The notes beneath the pieces are model-generated. The model ran no database searches. It saw only the letters and a program-made list of their open reading frames with translations, and was not told the DNA's origin. A stretch of 64,000 nucleotides of DNA from Acutalibacteraceae bacterium (lineage in GTDB: Bacteria > Bacillota > Clostridia > Oscillospirales > Acutalibacteraceae). The stretch spans positions 164,842 to 228,841 of the forward strand of contig JAZQJD010000026.1 of NCBI GenBank assembly GCA_045541435.1. The letters are read 5' to 3'. The translations under genes were made by a program, and so were the position numbers. Of this stretch, positions 10,552 to 47,689 are shown one piece after another. Within the stretch, counting starts at the first letter, position 1; every line of letters starts with the position of its first letter.

Positions 10552-11896
10552 CTCCGTTTATTATTGTATAAAGCAATACTGCACCATCGTTTTCAACGGG
10601 TGTAACTTTTATTTTTAAATCTTTCGAAAGTTCATCAATCGTAACATCATCGAGGAATTTATCACCCTCGTTTCTTAAAGAAACTCTGGGAATCAAAAGC
10701 TCTTCTCCTAAATTCAAGTCCTTTAACTGTGCCTTAAAATCTGCACCGGTTATAAGACCTGCAACAGTAACAGTATCACCGAAAAAGTCATTTTTAATTT
10801 TTATTACATTTATTTTCAAGCCTTGAAATTTTTCTTCTGCCTTTTTACATAGGCTTGAAATAAGACTATGAGCCGCATAACCTGTTGCAACGGTAATATT
10901 GCGGTTTACCTCCTTAACTTCTGCATCTTCAAGAGCGTCAAGGAATTCTTCTTTTAACAAAGCACACATACCCACACCGTTATCAAGCTGGGAAAACTCA
11001 CCGTAATAATCTGCATCGGGAAGCTCACGCTCTGCTATGAGATAGAATTCATCAGAAGCATAAGCAAGAGTTTTTCCTCCGTTATAGAAAGAAAAATGCG
11101 CATTAAATTCATCAATTATATCAATAACATTTGACGCTTCTTCTTTGGTATAGCTTCTCAAGGGGTAAAGACCATCACGGAATTTTGTAAGACCTACGGG
11201 AACTGCGGCTACACTTTTAACACTCGGAGAAAGCTTTGAAAGCTCTTCCAAGGAAAAGCGGAGCTCATCGCCATCATTTATACCGGGACATAGAACAAGC
11301 TGAGTGTTCATTTCGATTCCGTTTTCAGAAAATCTATCAAGAATTTTAAGACTATCCCCTGCAAAACGATTTTTCATCATTTCAACACGGAGCTTGGGAT
11401 TCATTGTGTGAACGGAAATATTAATGGGTGAAATGTGCATATCAATAATTCGTTGCACTTCTCTTTCACAAAGTCCTGTTAAGGTTATATAGTTACCGAA
11501 AAGAAAGGACATTCTTGAATCATCGTCTTTAAAATAAAGGGTATCTCTCATACCCTTTGGCATCTGGTCAACAAAGCAGAAAACACATTTGTTTTTGCAG
11601 GAATGCTGCTTATCCATAAGATATGTTTTGAATTCAAGGCCAATATCGGCGTATTCGTCACTTTTTCTTATATTGATAACTACCGTTTCGCCGTTTCTTA
11701 AAATTTCTAACTTAAGCTTACGACTTTGAATATAAAAGCGGTAATCGAGAACATCAAATACTTCATGGCTATTGATTTTAACAAGCTCATCCCCTGCTAA
11801 AGCTCCTGCTTTTTCGCCATAGGAATCGGGACACACTTTTTCAATAATAACAGACATTCTTTCACCACATTTCATATTTTGATTATTACAGTCCAA
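10544..11896 (-). CDS. DUF512 protein with an N-terminal PDZ domain
   Basis: PDZ-like N-terminus followed by a Cys-rich CKNKCVFCF region. Sits upstream of der and overlaps it, the conserved Clostridia arrangement. Confidence 0.8.
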   Translation of the reverse strand: MDCNNQNMKCGERMSVIIEKVCPDSYGEKAGALAGDELVKINSHEVFDVLDYRFYIQSRKLKLEILRNGETVVINIRKSDEYADIGLEFKTYLMDKQHSCKNKCVFCFVDQMPKGMRDTLYFKDDDSRMSFLFGNYITLTGLCEREVQRIIDMHISPINISVHTMNPKLRVEMMKNRFAGDSLKILDRFSENGIEMNTQLVLCPGINDGDELRFSLEELSKLSPSVKSVAAVPVGLTKFRDGLYPLRSYTKEEASNVIDIIDEFNAHFSFYNGGKTLAYASDEFYLIAERELPDADYYGEFSQLDNGVGMCALLKEEFLDALEDAEVKEVNRNITVATGYAAHSLISSLCKKAEEKFQGLKINVIKIKNDFFGDTVTVAGLITGADFKAQLKDLNLGEELLIPRVSLRNEGDKFLDDVTIDELSKDLKIKVTPVENDGAVLLYTIINGGA

Positions 11897-39747: not shown

Positions 39748-39962
39748 ATCTAAGACCTACGGCATTTTCTTAAAAGAAAAGCCCTTCCTTTCTGAAAAGT
39801 CTCATTTTTAAAAACGTGTTCATATGGTAGCACACTAAAGTGCTAAAGTCAATAGTCAAACACCATTATTTTTTCTGAAATTGAAATTTGTTAAAATGAA
39901 TAAAAACACTTGAAAAAATCAAGGGTTTTATATATAATACTAATTGCATTTTTAATATTTTT

Positions 39963-40038
39963 GCTGGAATAGCTCAGTTGGTAGAGCAGCTCATTCGTAA
40001 TGAGCAGGTCGCGTGTTCGAGTCACGTTTCCAGCTCCA
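39963..40038 (+). tRNA. tRNA-Thr (anticodon CGU)
   Basis: Cloverleaf folds by hand. 7-bp acceptor stem, D and T arms, anticodon loop TTCGTAA, and an encoded CCA. Confidence 0.9.
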
Positions 40039-40068
40039 AAAAAGACAGTCCTCGGACTGTCTTTTTTT
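40039..40068 (+). terminator. Rho-independent terminator after tRNA-Thr
   Basis: GACAGTCC-TCG-GACTGTC hairpin followed by TTTTTTT. Confidence 0.8.
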
Positions 40069-40071
40069 ATC

Positions 40072-40240
40072 CATTGCGAAAGCAATGGTATATCATCACA
40101 CTTTAGTGTGTATATCATCGCCAAAGGCGTATATCATCAACCACAGGTTGCATAATCTTTCGCAATGATGATATACAAAGCGTTGCTTTGGTGATATGCA
40201 ATTTCTGCAAAATTGATGATATACACACCTACGGTGTGAT
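40072..40240. repeat. Iteron-like array of 9-mer TATATCATC boxes, each beside a short hairpin
   Basis: Direct boxes at 40089, 40111 and 40130, with a degenerate fourth at ~40151. Exact inverted boxes GATGATATA at 40167 and 40215, plus a variant GTGATATGC near 40191. Each box abuts a different 4-6-bp-stem hairpin. Confidence 0.6.
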
Positions 40241-40475
40241 TTTTCTTACAAGAACTCAATGCAAGAATCCTGAACGAGCTCATTGAGAAAATTGTGGTAT
40301 CAGAAAAGGAAATTATAGACGGTGAAAAATATCAATGCGTGCATATATACTACAAGTTCGTAGGGTTGATGAGTATATAAAAAGAAGCTGATAAAATCAG
40401 CTCCTTGTTTATAAATTTATATATTGCTTTTATTTCAAAACAAAAAATTGTTTTGCACTTATTTTTTGTATAAAT

Positions 40476-41180
40476 TTAAACTTCTTCTGCTTCGTTCTTT
40501 TCGTTTTCAGCACCAAGAAAATCAATTTCGCCATTTTTATAAGCTTTTATAATTTTATTTAAAAGACTCCTTTTCAAAAAAACACTCTCAACCCAAAATC
40601 TTACAAATCTCCATTTTATGCCTTCTTCAGAAAACATCTTATAACTAGGTCTATTTATCTTTTTGGTAATATGTTTATCTATTCGCTTTTGCCACTTTTG
40701 AATATCTCCAATTAGCATCAAACCTACAAATTCATAGTTTGTTTCTCCAGTTTCATTCATAAATAATAGCAAGCACAATGTATATCTGTTCATAGCATAT
40801 AGATATGCTGATGTTGTTAAATCAAGATACCTTTCATGTTCTTCTCTACAATTTTGTATACCATCTAAAAATTCAATAAAAGTCTCCCTGCTTTCCATAA
40901 TTTCAGGATAATAAATATTATTAGAAAAAGTAGCATCCTCTGGCGTCTCTATATCATCACCAAACGAAAATATATCGATCGCAGCCGCTTTTAATTCCAC
41001 CTTTTTTACTTCTTCATACGCAGAAAAAATTTTTTCTCCCAATTTTTCTCTATAATTGATTTTTGTTTGTTTTTTTATTTTATGTAATTCAGCGATATGT
41101 GTAAGCAAAGCAGTAATTACAATAATTATCACTTTTTCTACTATGTCTTCTGTAAAAAAATCTTTTATAAGTTCAATCAT
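40476..41180 (-). CDS. Hypothetical protein (island cargo, no recognisable domain)
   Basis: 234-aa ORF. Second gene of a two-gene unit between the tRNA-Thr and its duplicated 3' end. Confidence 0.4.
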   Translation of the reverse strand: MIELIKDFFTEDIVEKVIIIVITALLTHIAELHKIKKQTKINYREKLGEKIFSAYEEVKKVELKAAAIDIFSFGDDIETPEDATFSNNIYYPEIMESRETFIEFLDGIQNCREEHERYLDLTTSAYLYAMNRYTLCLLLFMNETGETNYEFVGLMLIGDIQKWQKRIDKHITKKINRPSYKMFSEEGIKWRFVRFWVESVFLKRSLLNKIIKAYKNGEIDFLGAENEKNEAEEV

Positions 41181-41186
41181 ACTTAT

Positions 41187-41801
41187 TCACCTCAACTTAA
41201 CCTTAATTTCCGGACCAAAATTGAGTGGCTCAAAATCATCGTTAACTTCCCACAAATAACTATACAAATACAAGATATGTGTAGCATTGGATGGGTCGGT
41301 TTTGTATTGGCGATAATTAGCACAACTTGTCCAGAATTGTTCTGCAGTAAATCGTTCGGGAAGTGCTGATATAACTCTTGAAAAAGCTTCAACTTGTTCA
41401 TCCGAGAGCTTCATCCATACACTATTAACTGAAGGATTCGGCAAATCAGGTGCACTATCGAATTTCTGTTTAAGTTTTGGATTTTCAGCAAAGACTGTTT
41501 CAATGGATTGAAGGACATCATCTGCAACAAGTTTGCACCATTGTGCATCTACGAACTCACAACCATTGCTTGGTTTCATTTTTGCAGAAAATCCTTTTTT
41601 CAATATAATCCAATCACTAAGATGGTCACCTTTTTTCCATGATATTCCGTTATATGAGTAATCTTCATCTGCATATTTAGGGAAAACACCTACAACTTTC
41701 CAATAGCCTGAACTATATTGGGTAACCCAATCACCAACTTTAAAGGTTGAATATGTGTCATTTGTTTTTTCTTTCTTGTGGAATATATCAAACAAACCCA
41801 T
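41187..41801 (-). CDS. Hypothetical protein (island cargo, no recognisable domain)
   Basis: 204-aa ORF. A 6-nt gap separates it from the downstream ORF. Confidence 0.4.
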   Translation of the reverse strand: MGLFDIFHKKEKTNDTYSTFKVGDWVTQYSSGYWKVVGVFPKYADEDYSYNGISWKKGDHLSDWIILKKGFSAKMKPSNGCEFVDAQWCKLVADDVLQSIETVFAENPKLKQKFDSAPDLPNPSVNSVWMKLSDEQVEAFSRVISALPERFTAEQFWTSCANYRQYKTDPSNATHILYLYSYLWEVNDDFEPLNFGPEIKVKLR

Positions 41802-41896
41802 AAATATGCTCCTTAAAAACTATATTATATGTAGTAATTATATCACATACCATCTAACATTTCCATAGCCAATTAATATATCCTTAACTACAAGCA

Positions 41897-41930
41897 CAGG
41901 TCGCGTGTTCGAGTCCCGTTTCCAGCTACA
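41897..41930 (+). repeat. Duplicated 3' portion of tRNA-Thr (attR-like direct repeat)
   Basis: CAGGTCGCGTGTTCGAGTCcCGTTTCCAGCT matches tRNA positions 40008-40038 at 30 of 31 nt. Followed by the hairpin terminator CCGCACACGAAAGTGTACGGG plus T-run. Confidence 0.75.
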
Positions 41931-42085
41931 AAAATGCCGCACACGAAAGTGTACGGGATTTTTACTTATTCACTAATAATATTGATATTAAAATCTTAAA
42001 TATTTCTTAAGATTCTATCGATTTGTTGTTTTCTGTTCTTTTTACTGCTAAAATTGTGATATAGCAAGCTGAAAGGAGCGGTTTT

Positions 42086-42781
42086 ATGGCAAAGTTCAAA
42101 TCAAATAAGAAAATAATAAAAATACTTATAATTGTTGCAGTAATTCTTATCGTGGCAAGTGTTCTTTTAAACGGCATTAACTTAGTACCATTCAGATACA
42201 GAAATGTACCTGTTTCTTTCTTAACTCCTGATTTAACATGGAACAGTAAGCCGAGTGATATTATTTTAAAATATGATTTACCCGAAGATATCGGCGAAGT
42301 AAATGACATAACAGGTGAACGCACTTTCAAATTTAAGTTAAATTATGATGAAAAAGAAGTATCTTTATCAGCTGATAACAGAGGTGCTCTTAATAGCGAA
42401 CTCCACCGCTATTATTTCACTATAGATTGCAAAACACCCGAAGAAGCAAACAAATACTTTGACGAATGTCATAAAAAGATGATGGATTTATATAAAAATG
42501 AGCCGGATTTTAAGTTTGAAGGCACAGAAACTGAAACTGATTATGAATTCAAAGATGGTTCACCCTGCTCTTATTCCTCTTCATATAAAAACGGGAAAGA
42601 AGAAATTCTGATTATAGACGATGACGGAAACGAAATTCCGGTTGAAGAAGCAGATAATGTTATACAAGTGAAAACAAAGGTAAACAGCTATGATATGAGT
42701 AATACAGTAGGTGTCAACTGGTGGCTTTCTTATTCCGAAGGGGATTCTTCAGTTTATTTACAGGCTGAAATTATGTATTAA
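42086..42781 (+). CDS. Hypothetical N-terminally anchored membrane protein
   Basis: N-terminal TM (IIKILIIVAVILIVASVLL). Acidic extracytoplasmic domain. Confidence 0.4.
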   Translation: MAKFKSNKKIIKILIIVAVILIVASVLLNGINLVPFRYRNVPVSFLTPDLTWNSKPSDIILKYDLPEDIGEVNDITGERTFKFKLNYDEKEVSLSADNRGALNSELHRYYFTIDCKTPEEANKYFDECHKKMMDLYKNEPDFKFEGTETETDYEFKDGSPCSYSSSYKNGKEEILIIDDDGNEIPVEEADNVIQVKTKVNSYDMSNTVGVNWWLSYSEGDSSVYLQAEIMY

Positions 42782-42793
42782 GCTTATAATTCA

Positions 42794-42835
42794 AACCACT
42801 CCGTTTAACAGATTTTTCTGCTAAACGGAGTGGTT
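42794..42835. repeat. Conserved hairpin family, copy 1 (bidirectional terminator)
   Basis: CCGTTTAACAGA-TTTT-TCTGCTAAACGG core with a conserved A/C mismatch in the stem. Confidence 0.6.
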
Positions 42836-42846
42836 TGTTTCTTGAA

Positions 42847-44524: not shown

Positions 44525-45916
44525 TTAAAGCTTTTCGCCACATTCAAGGCAGAATTTTGCACCTGTTGGAATTTCTGCACCGCATTTTGCACATTTAATA
44601 ATCAAGGATGCGCCACATTCCATACAGAACTTGCCTTTGGATGTCTTTTTACCACAAACAGGGCAAATCATTTCATTTTCTGCAAGGTTTTCTACCTTTG
44701 CACCACATTCAAGGCAGAATTTTGCATTAGCAGGTAAGGTATTGCCACATTTAGCGCATTTAATACTGCTTTCTGGAGTCTGGACGCTACCTGCAAAACC
44801 ATTGAAAACCTCACCTAACTGACCGCTCATTGCACCTGCTGCCTGAAGACCAACACCTAAGCCGACGATATCGCCCATCATACTGCCACCGGCACCATCG
44901 CCCCCCATATTGCCAAGACCTTCTGCAAATGCTTTCTGAACATCCGCCTGAACATATTCTTTTTCAGTAATACCTTTAGCAGCCATAATTTCAGCTTCTG
45001 CAAAGCCTGCCATTTTTGCTGCCTGTGCTTCTGTTTGCGCTTTAATAAGCTCACGCTCTGCTTCGCGTTTAGCGACCTCTGTTTCGGTTGTCTGTCGCTC
45101 AAGCTCAATCTGTCTCTGAGCTGCAGTAACCTCCGCCTCCGCCTCTGCTTTTGCAGTTCGGATTTCAGTTTCTGCCTCAACCATTCTCTTCTGGAATGAA
45201 ATTGTATGTAATTCTCGAATTTTCTTGAAGTTGAGGTCATCTTCGGGCAAAACAATTGTTGTCACATAAAGCTGAGGAATTGTTAAACCATATTCTTCAA
45301 AGCCGGGTATAAGTTCTTCTTTAAGAACTCCTGAAAGGTCTTCAAGTCTCTCATCTATTTCAAGAATATCTATTTCCCCCTGCTTGATAGCGATTGGAAG
45401 ATTCGCTTTAACTGCAGTTGAAATGAAAGGTCTGAAGCAGTCGTTAAGACTCTTTGTAAAGCCTTCCCTGCTATCGCCCCAGGCAATGCCGTTTGCAGTA
45501 CCAACAAGCTTTATAAGAAGCTTACGGGAATCGGAAACCTGAAGATTCATTTCACCGCTGGCACCTAACTCAAGGGGAACACCTGTAAGAGAATCAATAA
45601 AACGAACCTTACTGTCTGTGCCCCATTTAACAGACATCTGAACAGTTTTGTTAATGAAATAAACTTCGCAATGGAAAGGTGATTCCCCACCTGTTGCAAG
45701 GTTAAGAAGATTGCTGAGTAAGGGAATATTCTGTGTGGTGAGAGTATATCTTCCGGGTCCGAAAGAATCAAGTGCCTGACCGTTTTTAAAGAAAATTGCC
45801 TCCTGACTTTCGTGAACAATCAACTGTGAAAGAATATTAAAATCCTCTGCAGGATGCTTCCAGATAAATGTACTGTTATCGCCTTCATATTTAATAACAT
45901 CTATAATCTTTGCCAT
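44525..45916 (-). CDS. SPFH/band-7 (PF13421-like) protein with a coiled coil and three C-terminal zinc ribbons
   Basis: SPFH-like N-terminal domain, an Ala/Glu-rich coiled coil, and three CxxC...CxxCG ribbons (CAKCGNTL..FCLECG, CPVCGKK..FCMECG, CAKCGAEI..FCLECG). Confidence 0.65.
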   Translation of the reverse strand: MAKIIDVIKYEGDNSTFIWKHPAEDFNILSQLIVHESQEAIFFKNGQALDSFGPGRYTLTTQNIPLLSNLLNLATGGESPFHCEVYFINKTVQMSVKWGTDSKVRFIDSLTGVPLELGASGEMNLQVSDSRKLLIKLVGTANGIAWGDSREGFTKSLNDCFRPFISTAVKANLPIAIKQGEIDILEIDERLEDLSGVLKEELIPGFEEYGLTIPQLYVTTIVLPEDDLNFKKIRELHTISFQKRMVEAETEIRTAKAEAEAEVTAAQRQIELERQTTETEVAKREAERELIKAQTEAQAAKMAGFAEAEIMAAKGITEKEYVQADVQKAFAEGLGNMGGDGAGGSMMGDIVGLGVGLQAAGAMSGQLGEVFNGFAGSVQTPESSIKCAKCGNTLPANAKFCLECGAKVENLAENEMICPVCGKKTSKGKFCMECGASLIIKCAKCGAEIPTGAKFCLECGEKL

Positions 45917-45952: not shown

Positions 45953-47689
45953 TTAATTAATTTTACTAACCAAAGCCCACAAAACTAGAATTAAGGAAAG
46001 AACCGCTACACCAATTAAAATTTTGGAGTAATGTTTTTTGTTTTTGTTATTATTCTTTCGTTCTTCTTCGGCTTTTTGGCGTTCAATACGCTCTTCCTCA
46101 GCCTTGTGTTCTCGCGCTATTCTGTCTGCTTGTTCCTTTGCTTTGATTTCTTCGATTCTTTTCTTACAAGCAATGATTTTTTCATCAGCATCTTTCCAAC
46201 CGGGAATTTCTTCAAGAAGCGCAATGGCGTTCACATACTTTGCGGTATTTGAGCCGGTCATATTCGCCTCAGCCTCAGAAAGAATTGTATCCTTTCTTGC
46301 AATCTCACCTTTTTCAAAGCATTCCTGAGATTTTTCCTTTGCATCGGCATAGTCCATAACCTCAATGAACATATATCCTGCATTTTCAAACATCTGCTCA
46401 GTTGTAGCACTTTCCATTATTTCAAGGGCGTTTTCATATAAATCCTTTTTACGAGCATCATCTAAACGCCTTGCAATAATTTTATTGCAGTTTTTAACTT
46501 TTTCTTTCAATTCGCTATCAGCAAACCGCATTATTTTTTCATAATTTTTATTATCGCTGAACGTTGTATAAAAGCTACTAAGATTTTCAAATTTTGAGAT
46601 TTCCAAATCAGCAAAAAGTTTACCTAAATATGCACTTGCGTTTTTAGGGTCTTGATTAAGTACAGCTTCAAAAAATTCATCCGCATTATCCCAATCCTGA
46701 TCTTCAAGAAAATGAAAGCCTCTCTCCAAAAGTGGTGCAACATCAACATTATCGTTATTCAAAACAATTTTTTCTTTTGAGGCTTTAACACGGGTTTTAT
46801 CAATAATGTGCTCGATACTTTCCATAAGGCTTCCGAAGAAAGTCACATCACCCATATCAAGAGCCTGCATATTTTTAAACTCTTTAGGAATGTCGTAGGC
46901 ATCCATATTCTTATAGCAAGGTATAAGCACCTTAGAAGAATTGTCGCCCATCATTGATATAAAACGAGACCACTCGTTTTTAACCCATACTGCATTGTAA
47001 TAATCGTGCTTTGTACCTATGGCAAGCATAATTTTTGCACTTGAAAGAGCCGCATAAATATATGGTTCATATTCCGTACCGGCAATCTCACGAAGAGAAG
47101 CTCTTGAAAAGAAAACTCGGTAACCGGCTCTCAAAAGCTCGGTATAAATATCCTGAGCTATAAGGCTATCCTCAGTTCGTGAACCGGTAATATCATCAAT
47201 TTCTTTATAACAAATGAAAATATCATAAGGTTCTTCATTTAAGGCTATATCAAGTATTTTCTTTTGAATTTTATCAATTGCTTTGGCTTCGTCACGGTAG
47301 ATGTTTTTTGCAGTTATATCAGCATACTCGCAAGCCTGCTGAAAATCATCATCTTCCATAATGGCAACAGGCAAGGTACGATGGCAGGTAGGAACCTTAC
47401 TTCCATTTCCGTCATCTACATATTCAATACCATACTTGCAAAGCACCAGCCCCCAATAGGCTTCAGCTTCATCACGAAATTCTGCAATAATACTTTCATA
47501 TATTCCGGCAGCTTTATCAAATTCACTTTTTATGCGAAGGTTATTGGCGCGAGAAAAAAGCGCAAGCTTTTTCTCATCATCCAATTTTGGCAGAGTCTGC
47601 TGTGTGCCACAATATTCGCAAGTGGCAACAGATTGATTATCCGAAATCTCCAACGCTCCCCCGCACATTTTACATTTAAAAATTGCCAT
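45953..47689 (-). CDS. Zinc-ribbon plus TIR-domain protein with TPR-like/coiled-coil regions and a C-terminal TM anchor
   Basis: N-terminal CKMCG...CEYCG ribbon. TIR motifs DIFICYKEID and WVKNEW (putative catalytic Glu). C-terminal coiled coil plus hydrophobic tail ILIGVAVLSLILVLWALV. Confidence 0.65.
   Translation of the reverse strand: MAIFKCKMCGGALEISDNQSVATCEYCGTQQTLPKLDDEKKLALFSRANNLRIKSEFDKAAGIYESIIAEFRDEAEAYWGLVLCKYGIEYVDDGNGSKVPTCHRTLPVAIMEDDDFQQACEYADITAKNIYRDEAKAIDKIQKKILDIALNEEPYDIFICYKEIDDITGSRTEDSLIAQDIYTELLRAGYRVFFSRASLREIAGTEYEPYIYAALSSAKIMLAIGTKHDYYNAVWVKNEWSRFISMMGDNSSKVLIPCYKNMDAYDIPKEFKNMQALDMGDVTFFGSLMESIEHIIDKTRVKASKEKIVLNNDNVDVAPLLERGFHFLEDQDWDNADEFFEAVLNQDPKNASAYLGKLFADLEISKFENLSSFYTTFSDNKNYEKIMRFADSELKEKVKNCNKIIARRLDDARKKDLYENALEIMESATTEQMFENAGYMFIEVMDYADAKEKSQECFEKGEIARKDTILSEAEANMTGSNTAKYVNAIALLEEIPGWKDADEKIIACKKRIEEIKAKEQADRIAREHKAEEERIERQKAEEERKNNNKNKKHYSKILIGVAVLSLILVLWALVSKIN

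Follow-up and report, generated by a model that had tools for sequence, protein, structure and literature searches.

A probable decayed integrative cassette without its own recombinase at the tRNA-Thr(CGU) gene of an Acutalibacteraceae genome, with a hairpin array resembling Gut-1

The DNA analysed here is a 64,000-nucleotide (nt) stretch from the genome of an Acutalibacteraceae bacterium (contig JAZQJD010000026.1; the whole stretch is called the window), and this report concerns the segment that directly follows its sole tRNA gene. The gene, a tRNA-Thr with anticodon CGT (tRNA-Thr(CGU)), lies at 39963-40038 on the plus strand (ARAGORN; Rfam tRNA model, 68.8 bits). The segment extends from 40039 to 41934, ends with a second, defective copy of the tRNA 3' end, and is probably a decayed integrative cassette. 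For comparison, a genome scan anchored on a YerC-like gene located 5' of the tRNA gene yielded 80 loci, nearly all from metagenome-assembled genomes of Acutalibacteraceae and other Oscillospirales. The related loci and metagenome contigs compared with the window are designated with L-numbers (L001 etc.); L001-L003, which are short YerC contigs, end before the island is reached.

The tRNA gene is intact and is preceded by a promoter-like site on the same strand (39910-39938; TTGAAA, 17-nt spacer, TATAAT) that is judged by its consensus match (11 of 12 positions); the motif is also kept 5' of the tRNA in L002. The first 42 nt of the gene are 100% identical across all listed related loci. Its last 34 nt together with the following AAAA form a unit that we call the core (O). 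The core is present in two copies of the same, plus-strand orientation, at 40005-40042 and at 41897-41934, and the repeat finder aligned them over 38 nt with two mismatches. An initial annotation of the window had described this duplication as 31 nt long with one mismatch; the repeat itself and the tRNA assignment by ARAGORN were confirmed, and its length and mismatch number had to be corrected. A coincidental similarity, which would have undermined that annotation, was not borne out: a 21-nt core pattern allowing up to three mismatches had two matches in the 64 kb, the two cores, where shuffled sequences led us to expect 0. One of the mismatches in the second copy (A to C at 41916) breaks a T-stem pair, and the other changes the encoded CCA to ACA; both are private to the window among the related loci compared. 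Because of the broken T stem and the loss of the encoded CCA, the second copy is a non-functional fragment.

The two cores differ in what surrounds them. Core 1 runs into a terminator hairpin of the tRNA (40038-40067, plus strand), which has a perfect 14-bp stem followed by a T-run and which would be the start of an element-borne arm, P'. The sequence of this stem varies among copies of the module, and a hairpin is formed in all of them. Core 2 has its own, different hairpin and T-run at 41937-41956, so that the earlier observation of a different terminator after each copy proved correct. This second terminator, together with TTTTTACTTATTCACTAAT, makes up the flank B' (41935-41985, plus strand), which equals the flank of the empty site in L029 and is also found 3' of the last core in L012, L027 and L030. 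Directly 5' of core 2, on the element side, lies the motif ATCCTTAACTACAAGCA (41880-41896, plus strand), which is shared, over 15-17 nt, by related loci and is referred to as the P-arm motif. The sequence CTTAAMTACAACCA precedes 27 of the 32 internal cores of the related loci and is dissimilar to the tRNA at the same position. The sequence at the insertion junction, AACC-ATA-GGTC, is nearly palindromic.

Between the terminator of the tRNA and the cargo genes lies an array of repeats and hairpins (40070-40238, plus strand). It is a dyad of about 170 nt with six 9-mers interleaved with covarying hairpins: three copies of TATATCATC are followed by three inverted words in the order GATGATATAC, GGTGATATGC, GATGATATAC, with a different small hairpin between each. 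GATGATATAC has five exact copies within 40088-40224, three on the minus and two on the plus strand, and no exact copy elsewhere in the window; when one mismatch was allowed, 11 matches were found against 3.4 expected. The single-strand folding z-score of the array was -7.5 relative to shuffled sequence. In the RNAalifold consensus of 16 copies the words pair 1-6, 2-5 and 3-4, the side hairpins are kept, compensatory changes occur at 13 of the 45 pairs, and 98.6% of the cells are paired. None of 500 shuffles attained the observed covariation, and sliding the partners abolished the signal, although the compensatory changes derive mostly from one split between two variants and thus represent few independent events. 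G-U cells outnumbered A-C cells on the plus strand (roughly 28 versus 4), which is weak evidence for transcription as RNA. The term iteron-like array used in the initial annotation was apt insofar as the array is real; it is not a simple iteron set, however, but a dyad hairpin/repeat structure related to the Gut-1 motif (see below).

Directly after the array, on the plus strand at 40243-40380, lies the 3' end of a gene for a large serine recombinase, 45 codons long and without a start codon. The translated sequence matches Pfam family PF14287 (DUF4368) with an E-value of 2e-14 over profile positions 25-65 of 67. This domain forms the C terminus of large serine recombinases in the TndX-like clade (PMC10083194). 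The insert had been described as integrase-less, which holds for a functional gene; integrase sequence is present in the form of this tail. Apart from the 45-codon tail and the two open reading frames (ORFs) without above-threshold domains that are described next, no functional integrase or transfer gene was found inside the insert.

The cargo consists of two minus-strand genes, ORF204 (204 aa; 41187-41801) and ORF234 (234 aa; 40476-41180), whose coordinates were confirmed. They would form a self-contained operon, with its own promoter-like site upstream of ORF204 (41837-41865, minus strand; TGGAAA, 17-nt spacer, TG-TATAAT; 10 of 12 positions of the consensus and an extended -10 element) and with a bidirectional terminator-like hairpin at its end (40382-40406; terminator scan of both strands). 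The absence of recognisable domains was upheld, as comparison with Pfam, PADLOC, PHROGs and NCBIfam gave nothing above threshold for either protein, only weak sub-threshold stretches. Exact-protein look-ups for ORF204, ORF234, the 231-aa gene product (see below) and P0121 returned no record. ORF204 belongs to a large family of hypothetical Clostridia proteins of about 202 aa, with 185 matches at E <= 1e-3 in a cluster-representative database, and nucleotide similarity of its region to other loci stops at the gene borders. ORF234 had three relatives among 5.8 billion cluster representatives. The remote-homology and structure checks that had been proposed for the two ORFs yielded little: the profile of the ORF204 family found nothing significant among PDB sequences, and the AlphaFold2 model of ORF234 was poor (pLDDT 41; mostly helical at low confidence) and unusable.

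The proposal that the two ORFs are a toxin/antitoxin or defence pair was not supported, as there was no PADLOC match and each family occurs without the other. ORF204 relatives without ORF234 were found in L004-L009 and L090-L093, ORF234 relatives occur elsewhere without ORF204, and the pair was seen only in the window and in L025. From their sequence contexts, ORF204 and ORF234 are best described as separate accessory genes of mobile, defence-rich neighbourhoods, not as a conserved pair. The island in L004, whose ORF204 homologue is 87% identical, contains type I restriction-modification genes, Mrr, a helix-turn-helix (HTH)-TPR gene, DUF6054 and Imm44. The end of that island (10780-10990) has two incomplete copies of the 3' end of another tRNA (…GGGTGTTCGAATCACCTCACTCCGACCA), both with the same terminator behind them, which resembles another tRNA-linked accretion site. 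A role of ORF204 as immunity protein of a polymorphic toxin was considered and rejected: the only hint was its position after the Imm44 and DUF6054 genes in L004-L006, and its other contexts differ. The relative of ORF234 with 76% identity sits 3' of GmrSD/HNH and EcoRI-methylase genes. In L100 (566-5369) the closest ORF234 relative comes directly after a GmrSD_N/HNH gene, and in L102 and L103 an EcoRI-type methylase gene precedes. The L100 gene is also located near a tyrosine integrase and a D5_N/DUF5906 primase, in a satellite-like or island-like setting.

Related genomes were searched for the unoccupied form of the site, as the initial annotation had suggested, and unoccupied loci were found. 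In L029 nothing separates the intact tRNA from the flank that begins at 41935 in the window. In L037 and L026 the same downstream tract, TTTTTTACTTATTCACTATT, follows the tRNA, but the terminator stem is different. L014 is emptier yet: the tRNA runs straight into the terminator of the anti-sigma gene and the 231-aa gene is absent. These empty sites, the P-arm motif and the native flank after the second core bear out the view that the duplicated tRNA end marks attL and attR of a degraded element integrated into a tRNA gene.

Forty related loci contain one to three cores of constant orientation, and 24 of them have two or three. The core-bounded intervals are about 0.9-9 kb long and their cargo is unrelated: a Fic-like protein, a serpin, extracytoplasmic function (ECF) sigma factors, a two-component system, radical-SAM and beta-lactamase-like proteins, and many small membrane or unknown proteins. 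The native flank B' is often found 3' of the last core. Taken together, the cores, the P-arm motifs and B' give the order B-O-P' … P-O-P' … P-O-B', as expected from repeated site-specific integration (accretion). The P' module (terminator, array and recombinase tail) is 88-94% identical across many loci. The tail lies within 400 nt of 19 of the 36 full tRNA copies that were amenable to scoring, B' follows directly in four of the 36, and the module follows two of 32 internal cores. In the related neighbourhoods the array is always situated between the core with its terminator and the tail. The module-bearing cassettes may be a currently active family, which always integrates at the true tRNA site and displaces older cassettes outward, and this would agree with the low divergence described below; alternatively, the module may be an old resident beside the tRNA.

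The window itself appears to contain one complete cassette and probably the remains of an older one. The latter is represented by the 231-aa gene (42086-42781, plus strand), which other genomes carry as cassette cargo: cores enclose it in L039 and L051, and it comes directly after the module in L013, L032, L039 and L099. The window lacks the P-arm and core to the right of the gene, so that this end would have been lost, and the gene runs straight into the anti-sigma terminator (42086-42846).

A different arrangement was observed in L027 (9560-9860, minus strand). There a tRNA-Thr of the window type is cut exactly after ...GAGCAGGTC, and the P-arm motif, in inverted form (TGGTTGTATTTAAGGAT), continues the sequence. 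Some 90 nt further on lies another tRNA-Thr(CGU), which is complete and differs in acceptor stem and T-arm, and the module comes next. The same layout was found in L011, L016, L021, L022, L028, L031 and L085. To judge from these sequences, it looks like a recombination product at the nearly palindromic crossover site, in which an element-borne tRNA has replaced the original one.

Evidence of movement was provided by L025, a different species-level genome whose his genes are about 89-92% identical to those of the window and which has this cassette, 95-96% identical, at the corresponding position. The synonymous divergence (dS) between the window and L025 was 0.06 for ORF204 and 0.14 for ORF234, whereas it was 0.42-0.93 for the flanking genes (hisB, hisD, hisZG, yerC, the sigma and anti-sigma genes and the SPFH gene). 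The dS of the cassette is thus 4-10 times below that of the flanks, which is indirect evidence of movement. In L025 the right end of the cassette is exactly at the core, after which comes a second module instead of B'. The low dS of the cassette and this junction indicate an exchange that took place after the divergence of the hosts and had its junction at the core. Vertical inheritance alone was also considered, and it is so far contradicted by the empty sites and the dS contrast.

The comparison of loci thus demonstrates an insertion relative to empty sites, conserved arms, cassette arrays in relatives and recent horizontal exchange. In our interpretation, which we think likely to be right, 40039-41934 is a decayed, CIME-like integrative cassette (CIME, cis-mobilizable element) that encodes no recombinase and was inserted site-specifically into the 3' end of tRNA-Thr(CGU), perhaps by a TnpX/TndX-like enzyme. 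According to this scheme attL would consist of the tRNA 5' part (B), the 38-nt core and the element arm P', which comprises the terminator, the Gut-1-like array and the tail of the recombinase gene. At the other end, attR would be made of the element arm P, a motif of about 17 nt (ATCCTTAACTACAAGCA), followed by the core and the native flank B'. The element before integration, P-O-P', would correspond to CCTTAACTACAACCA, the core and the terminator/array. Since such an element brings a replacement tRNA 3' end and a terminator, the tRNA would stay functional after integration, and the displaced original 3' end would be free to drift. The near-palindrome AACC-ATA-GGTC at the core's 5' edge is the predicted crossover site. 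The predicted excision junction is the tRNA joined to TGCCGCACACGAAAGTGTACGG, and that of the circle is …AACTACAAGCA, the core and GACAGTCCTCGGACTGTC. The enzyme that built the arrays would be a large serine recombinase of the TnpX/TndX type, the gene of which was once located 3' of the hairpin array. Today the cassette could presumably be moved only by an enzyme supplied in trans or by a neighbouring element.

All 21 copies of the recombinase tail that were examined are truncated near the same codon, and several have frameshifts or stop codons. Substitutions in the tail favour third codon positions (410, 190 and 788 pairwise differences at positions 1, 2 and 3), a bias that is unexpected in a pseudogene and might mean that tails arose repeatedly from functional genes. 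Two other explanations of the tail were rejected. Against a small independent gene speak the missing start codon and ribosome-binding site in the window and the frameshifts and stops of several copies. Nor is the tail likely to be one half of a recombinase gene split by the integration, because the core, the terminator and the array, which contain stops, intervene and no 5' half is present at the other end. A protein search with the 45-aa tail found truncated short fragments only, whereas a DNA pattern scan of metagenome contigs for the tail detected six loci, five truncated tails in the same array setting and one intact gene, in a single contig (L094). This gene encodes a 543-aa protein with Resolvase, Recombinase, Zn_ribbon_recom and DUF4368 domains and the motif YCRLSSDD. 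Its closest solved relative is TnpX, and its score with the NCBIfam CcrB model is 159 bits against a cutoff of 900. The final 137 nt of the gene are 95% identical to 40247-40383 of the window, and the gene is followed by a homologue of the 231-aa gene, with the same junction as in module-bearing cassettes. A second, internal fragment of an L094-type recombinase (aa 295-376, 98% identical) lies in the array of L085. Viral contigs, when scanned, contained no match to the hairpin array, the tail or the L094 recombinase. On these relics, a TnpX-like serine recombinase is the most likely builder of the cassette arrays, with a chance that we put at about even.

Several points weigh against the interpretation given above. 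Neither a circular nor an excised form was observed, and mobility is deduced from sequence comparison. No intact recombinase was found in or near any array, so that the enzyme is deduced from relics only. The search for intact elements did turn up an intact recombinase gene, that of L094; neither a core nor an array is present within 630 nt upstream of it, and its context is that of a different element, with a CI-like repressor and a LuxR-type regulator. For this reason the tail could be the debris of an unrelated transposon. Recombinases with DUF4368 have been described as mostly multi-targeting and not site-specific (PMC10083194). The module is mostly the first next to the tRNA, and an old, vertically inherited relic would look alike. 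Finally, the recombinase searches by tblastn and phmmer relied on two query proteins, one serine and one tyrosine recombinase; with these, neither the window nor about 100 loci yielded a further recombinase of the serine or tyrosine type.

Some of the same observations would fit a tyrosine integrase encoded elsewhere, which integrated the cassettes and for which the six 9-mers are arm-type or Xis-type sites of attP; the serine recombinase tail would then be the debris of a Tn4451/Tn5397-like transposon that was later deleted. A tRNA-restoring identity block, here of 38 nt, is typical of tyrosine integrases, and islands at tRNA 3' ends are their classic case. The 9-10-mers, which are repeated in both orientations at distances of about 45-200 bp from the core, do resemble arm-type sites, the L094 gene does not adjoin a core, and the multi-targeting habit of most DUF4368 transposases (PMC10083194) points in the same direction. 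On the other hand, the search of about 100 loci and the window revealed no tyrosine recombinase, a result of limited sensitivity as it was obtained with one query. The position, orientation and truncation point of the tail are alike in all four array variants, and a second recombinase fragment lies within another array (L085). Moreover, serine recombinases are known to build such arrays at ssrA and rlmH (PMC3146451). We consider the involvement of a tyrosine integrase unlikely, though deserving attention.

A considerably less probable explanation is that the hairpin array, with or without the tail, is a non-autonomous transposon similar to miniature inverted-repeat transposable elements (MITEs), which landed beside the tRNA terminator without any connection to the cassette and whose six subterminal repeats bind a transposase, and that the cassette is bounded only by the cores. 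The dyad of about 170 nt with inverted outer repeats would suit such an element, the repeats change in concert over four variants as expected if they co-evolved with a binding protein, and some Gut-1 seeds follow terminators of protein-coding genes instead of tRNAs. However, in this gene neighbourhood the array is without exception placed between the core with its terminator and the tail, and five of the six tail-pattern loci of the metagenome contigs have the array setting, the sixth being the intact L094 gene. A target-site duplication is not evident, no candidate transposase is known, and the covarying small hairpins are not needed by a model of duplex binding sites. The possibility that the second tRNA fragment was left by a local duplication or a tandem tRNA array, with ordinary chromosomal DNA in between, can practically be dismissed. 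It draws on the relatives of the L027 type, which carry a second tRNA-Thr(CGU) about 90 nt downstream; yet in these loci the first tRNA stops precisely at the edge of the core, where an inverted P-arm takes over, as in a recombination product. The initial annotation had named a tandem tRNA remnant as the finding that would speak against integration. It was not borne out in the window, where a conserved motif that is not tRNA sequence lies 5' of the fragment and the native flank 3' of it. Empty sites exist, the intervals differ between species in number and content, and the cassette is, by dS, far younger than its flanks.

Having named integration of a decayed cassette as the preferred explanation, we return to its hairpin array. 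At least four sequence variants with a single architecture and differing words were distinguished: variant A, to which the window belongs, has the word TATATCATC, variant B TATGTAATC, variant C ATGAAATA and variant D ACTTCATT. The hairpin sequences also vary by variant, whereas the adjoining recombinase tail is about 90% identical (measured between variants A and B); conservation between variants was 0.90 for the tail and 0.61 for the hairpin array. That all words of a variant change together points to a sequence-specific binder, and the kept hairpins point to a folded RNA or to single-stranded DNA (ssDNA), as far as comparison of the copies can indicate. Our best guess is that the array serves the element in cis, either as accessory attP binding sites or as a fold involved in transfer or in the single-stranded state, and is not a free-standing small RNA.

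The Gut-1 motif was reported from human gut metagenomes, with function unknown (Weinberg et al. 2010, PMC2864571); as published, neither its function nor its genomic context was given, and a search of the literature library used found no later paper on it. The array of the window fits the layout of Gut-1, i.e. at least three small variable hairpins parted by a conserved repeated word. With the Rfam model (RF01706) it scored 23.2 bits, half of the array being aligned, and variant C of L015 was matched in both halves, with 44.7 bits (E 1e-5) and 39.2 bits (E 3e-4); none of these values reached the gathering score of 50. The seed alignment of Gut-1, when viewed with its flanks, has the same order as our array: a terminator hairpin, then the repeated word with small hairpins, then the inverted half. 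One of the seeds lies directly 3' of a tRNA 3' end, as in the window. The Rfam model covers one half, whereas the array of the window is a full dyad, and the words differ (GATGATATA in the window, GUGAUAU or GUGAAAU in Gut-1).

A more general idea, which we put forward only tentatively and would not bet on, is that Gut-1-type arrays are the cis-acting 'handle' of recombinase-less cassettes in gut Clostridia, occurring in several specificity variants and stacked at tRNA genes by TnpX-like recombinases acting in trans. If true, this would amount to an integron-like cassette system built on a serine recombinase, and the orphan Gut-1 'RNA' would work as a DNA or ssDNA site, either as accessory sites of attP or as a fold like that of a transfer origin (oriT) or single-strand origin (sso).

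As to the wider neighbourhood, the his operon and a TrpR/YerC-like gene lie 5' of the tRNA gene, and the second core is followed by the 231-aa gene, an anti-sigma/ECF-sigma gene pair, an SPFH-zinc-ribbon gene and a TIR-TPR gene. The last two are located on the minus strand at a distance of a few kb from the island. One (44525-45916) encodes an SPFH/Band-7 protein whose C terminus has double zinc ribbons; the other (45953-47689), adjoining it, encodes a TIR-TPR protein with an N-terminal zinc ribbon. The pair appears defence-like, and PADLOC gave no match. In L001-L003, which encode an identical YerC-like protein, an additional hairpin-rich insertion of about 230 nt is present between yerC and the tRNA promoter; it contains …CTGCGGTACGCATAAATGCGTACC…CCCCTACCCACATAAAATGTAGGGG… and is absent from the window (aligned to 39860-39960).

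These results identify the tRNA-Thr(CGU) locus of uncultured Acutalibacteraceae, mostly known from animal-gut metagenome assemblies, as a hot spot at which cassettes of small accessory genes are stacked and exchanged between species without carrying a recombinase. They tie the DUF4368 clade, which was described as multi-targeting transposases, to a site-specific tRNA target. They also provide the first genomic context for Gut-1, which is found 3' of a tRNA/att core and terminator, at the left end of a cassette, in four co-varying versions, and this context makes the function of the motif testable as a DNA site or as RNA. The main interest of the locus lies in this conserved, unexplained hairpin/repeat module and its link to Gut-1.

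The type of cassette is already known: it is a decayed integrative cassette in a tRNA-linked accretion array, an ordinary genomic island. As a group of elements that are stacked at one site and driven by serine recombinases, SCCmec and the ccr-less pseudo-SCC elements (SCC, staphylococcal cassette chromosome) at rlmH/orfX of staphylococci come to mind; their cargo is variable, the cassettes are parted by short direct repeats and many have no recombinase genes. They differ from the cassette of the window in target gene, host clade and recombinase subfamily. Tn4451 and Tn5397, with TnpX and TndX, belong to the same DUF4368-bearing clade of large serine recombinases as the relic and its L094 homologue. 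These transposons use many GA-containing sites and carry their own recombinase, in contrast to the single tRNA core with a 38-nt identity block and the absent recombinase described here. CIMEs and their accretion are exemplified by streptococcal elements of the ICESt1/ICESt3 type (Pavlovic 2004, Bellanger 2011, reviewed in PMC5704250). Like the cassette of the window, they have lost integration and transfer genes, have kept attL and attR and are arranged in tandem at the 3' end of a conserved gene. The streptococcal CIMEs depend on tyrosine integrases and their cis-mobilization was shown experimentally, whereas here the enzyme is deduced from relics and mobility from sequence comparison.

By analogy, the closest described system appears to be the ssrA islands of Dehalococcoides, where a serine recombinase of about 540 aa is encoded beside attL, 20-bp repeats of the ssrA 3' end are each preceded by a conserved 15-bp motif, and the islands form tandem arrays (McMurdie et al. 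2011, PMC3146451). Those without integration genes were read as cis-mobilizable, and the link of the recombinase to CcrB was drawn in the same work (PMC3146451). Both the ssrA islands and the cassettes studied here are tandemly arranged downstream of a tRNA or tRNA-like gene and bounded by direct repeats of the gene's 3' end; an element-side motif of about 15 nt that does not align with the gene precedes each repeat, and the probable insertion site is in the T-arm region. Recombinase sizes are also similar, about 540 aa in the ssrA islands, where the gene is beside attL, and 543 aa in the L094 homologue of our 45-codon relic. The two systems differ in target (ssrA in Dehalococcoides, tRNA-Thr(CGU) in Acutalibacteraceae) and in recombinase, which is CcrB-like in the former and, to judge from the relic, TnpX/TndX-like with DUF4368 in the latter. 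Some ssrA islands have integration genes, whereas no cassette kept the integration module in about 90 loci studied here, and the Gut-1-like array of the attL arm is not described for ssrA islands. What distinguishes the Acutalibacteraceae cassettes from the known systems is thus the combination of arrays that, in all cases sampled, lack intact integration genes and an attL arm with a Gut-1-like array, in addition to the differences in host, target and recombinase subfamily.

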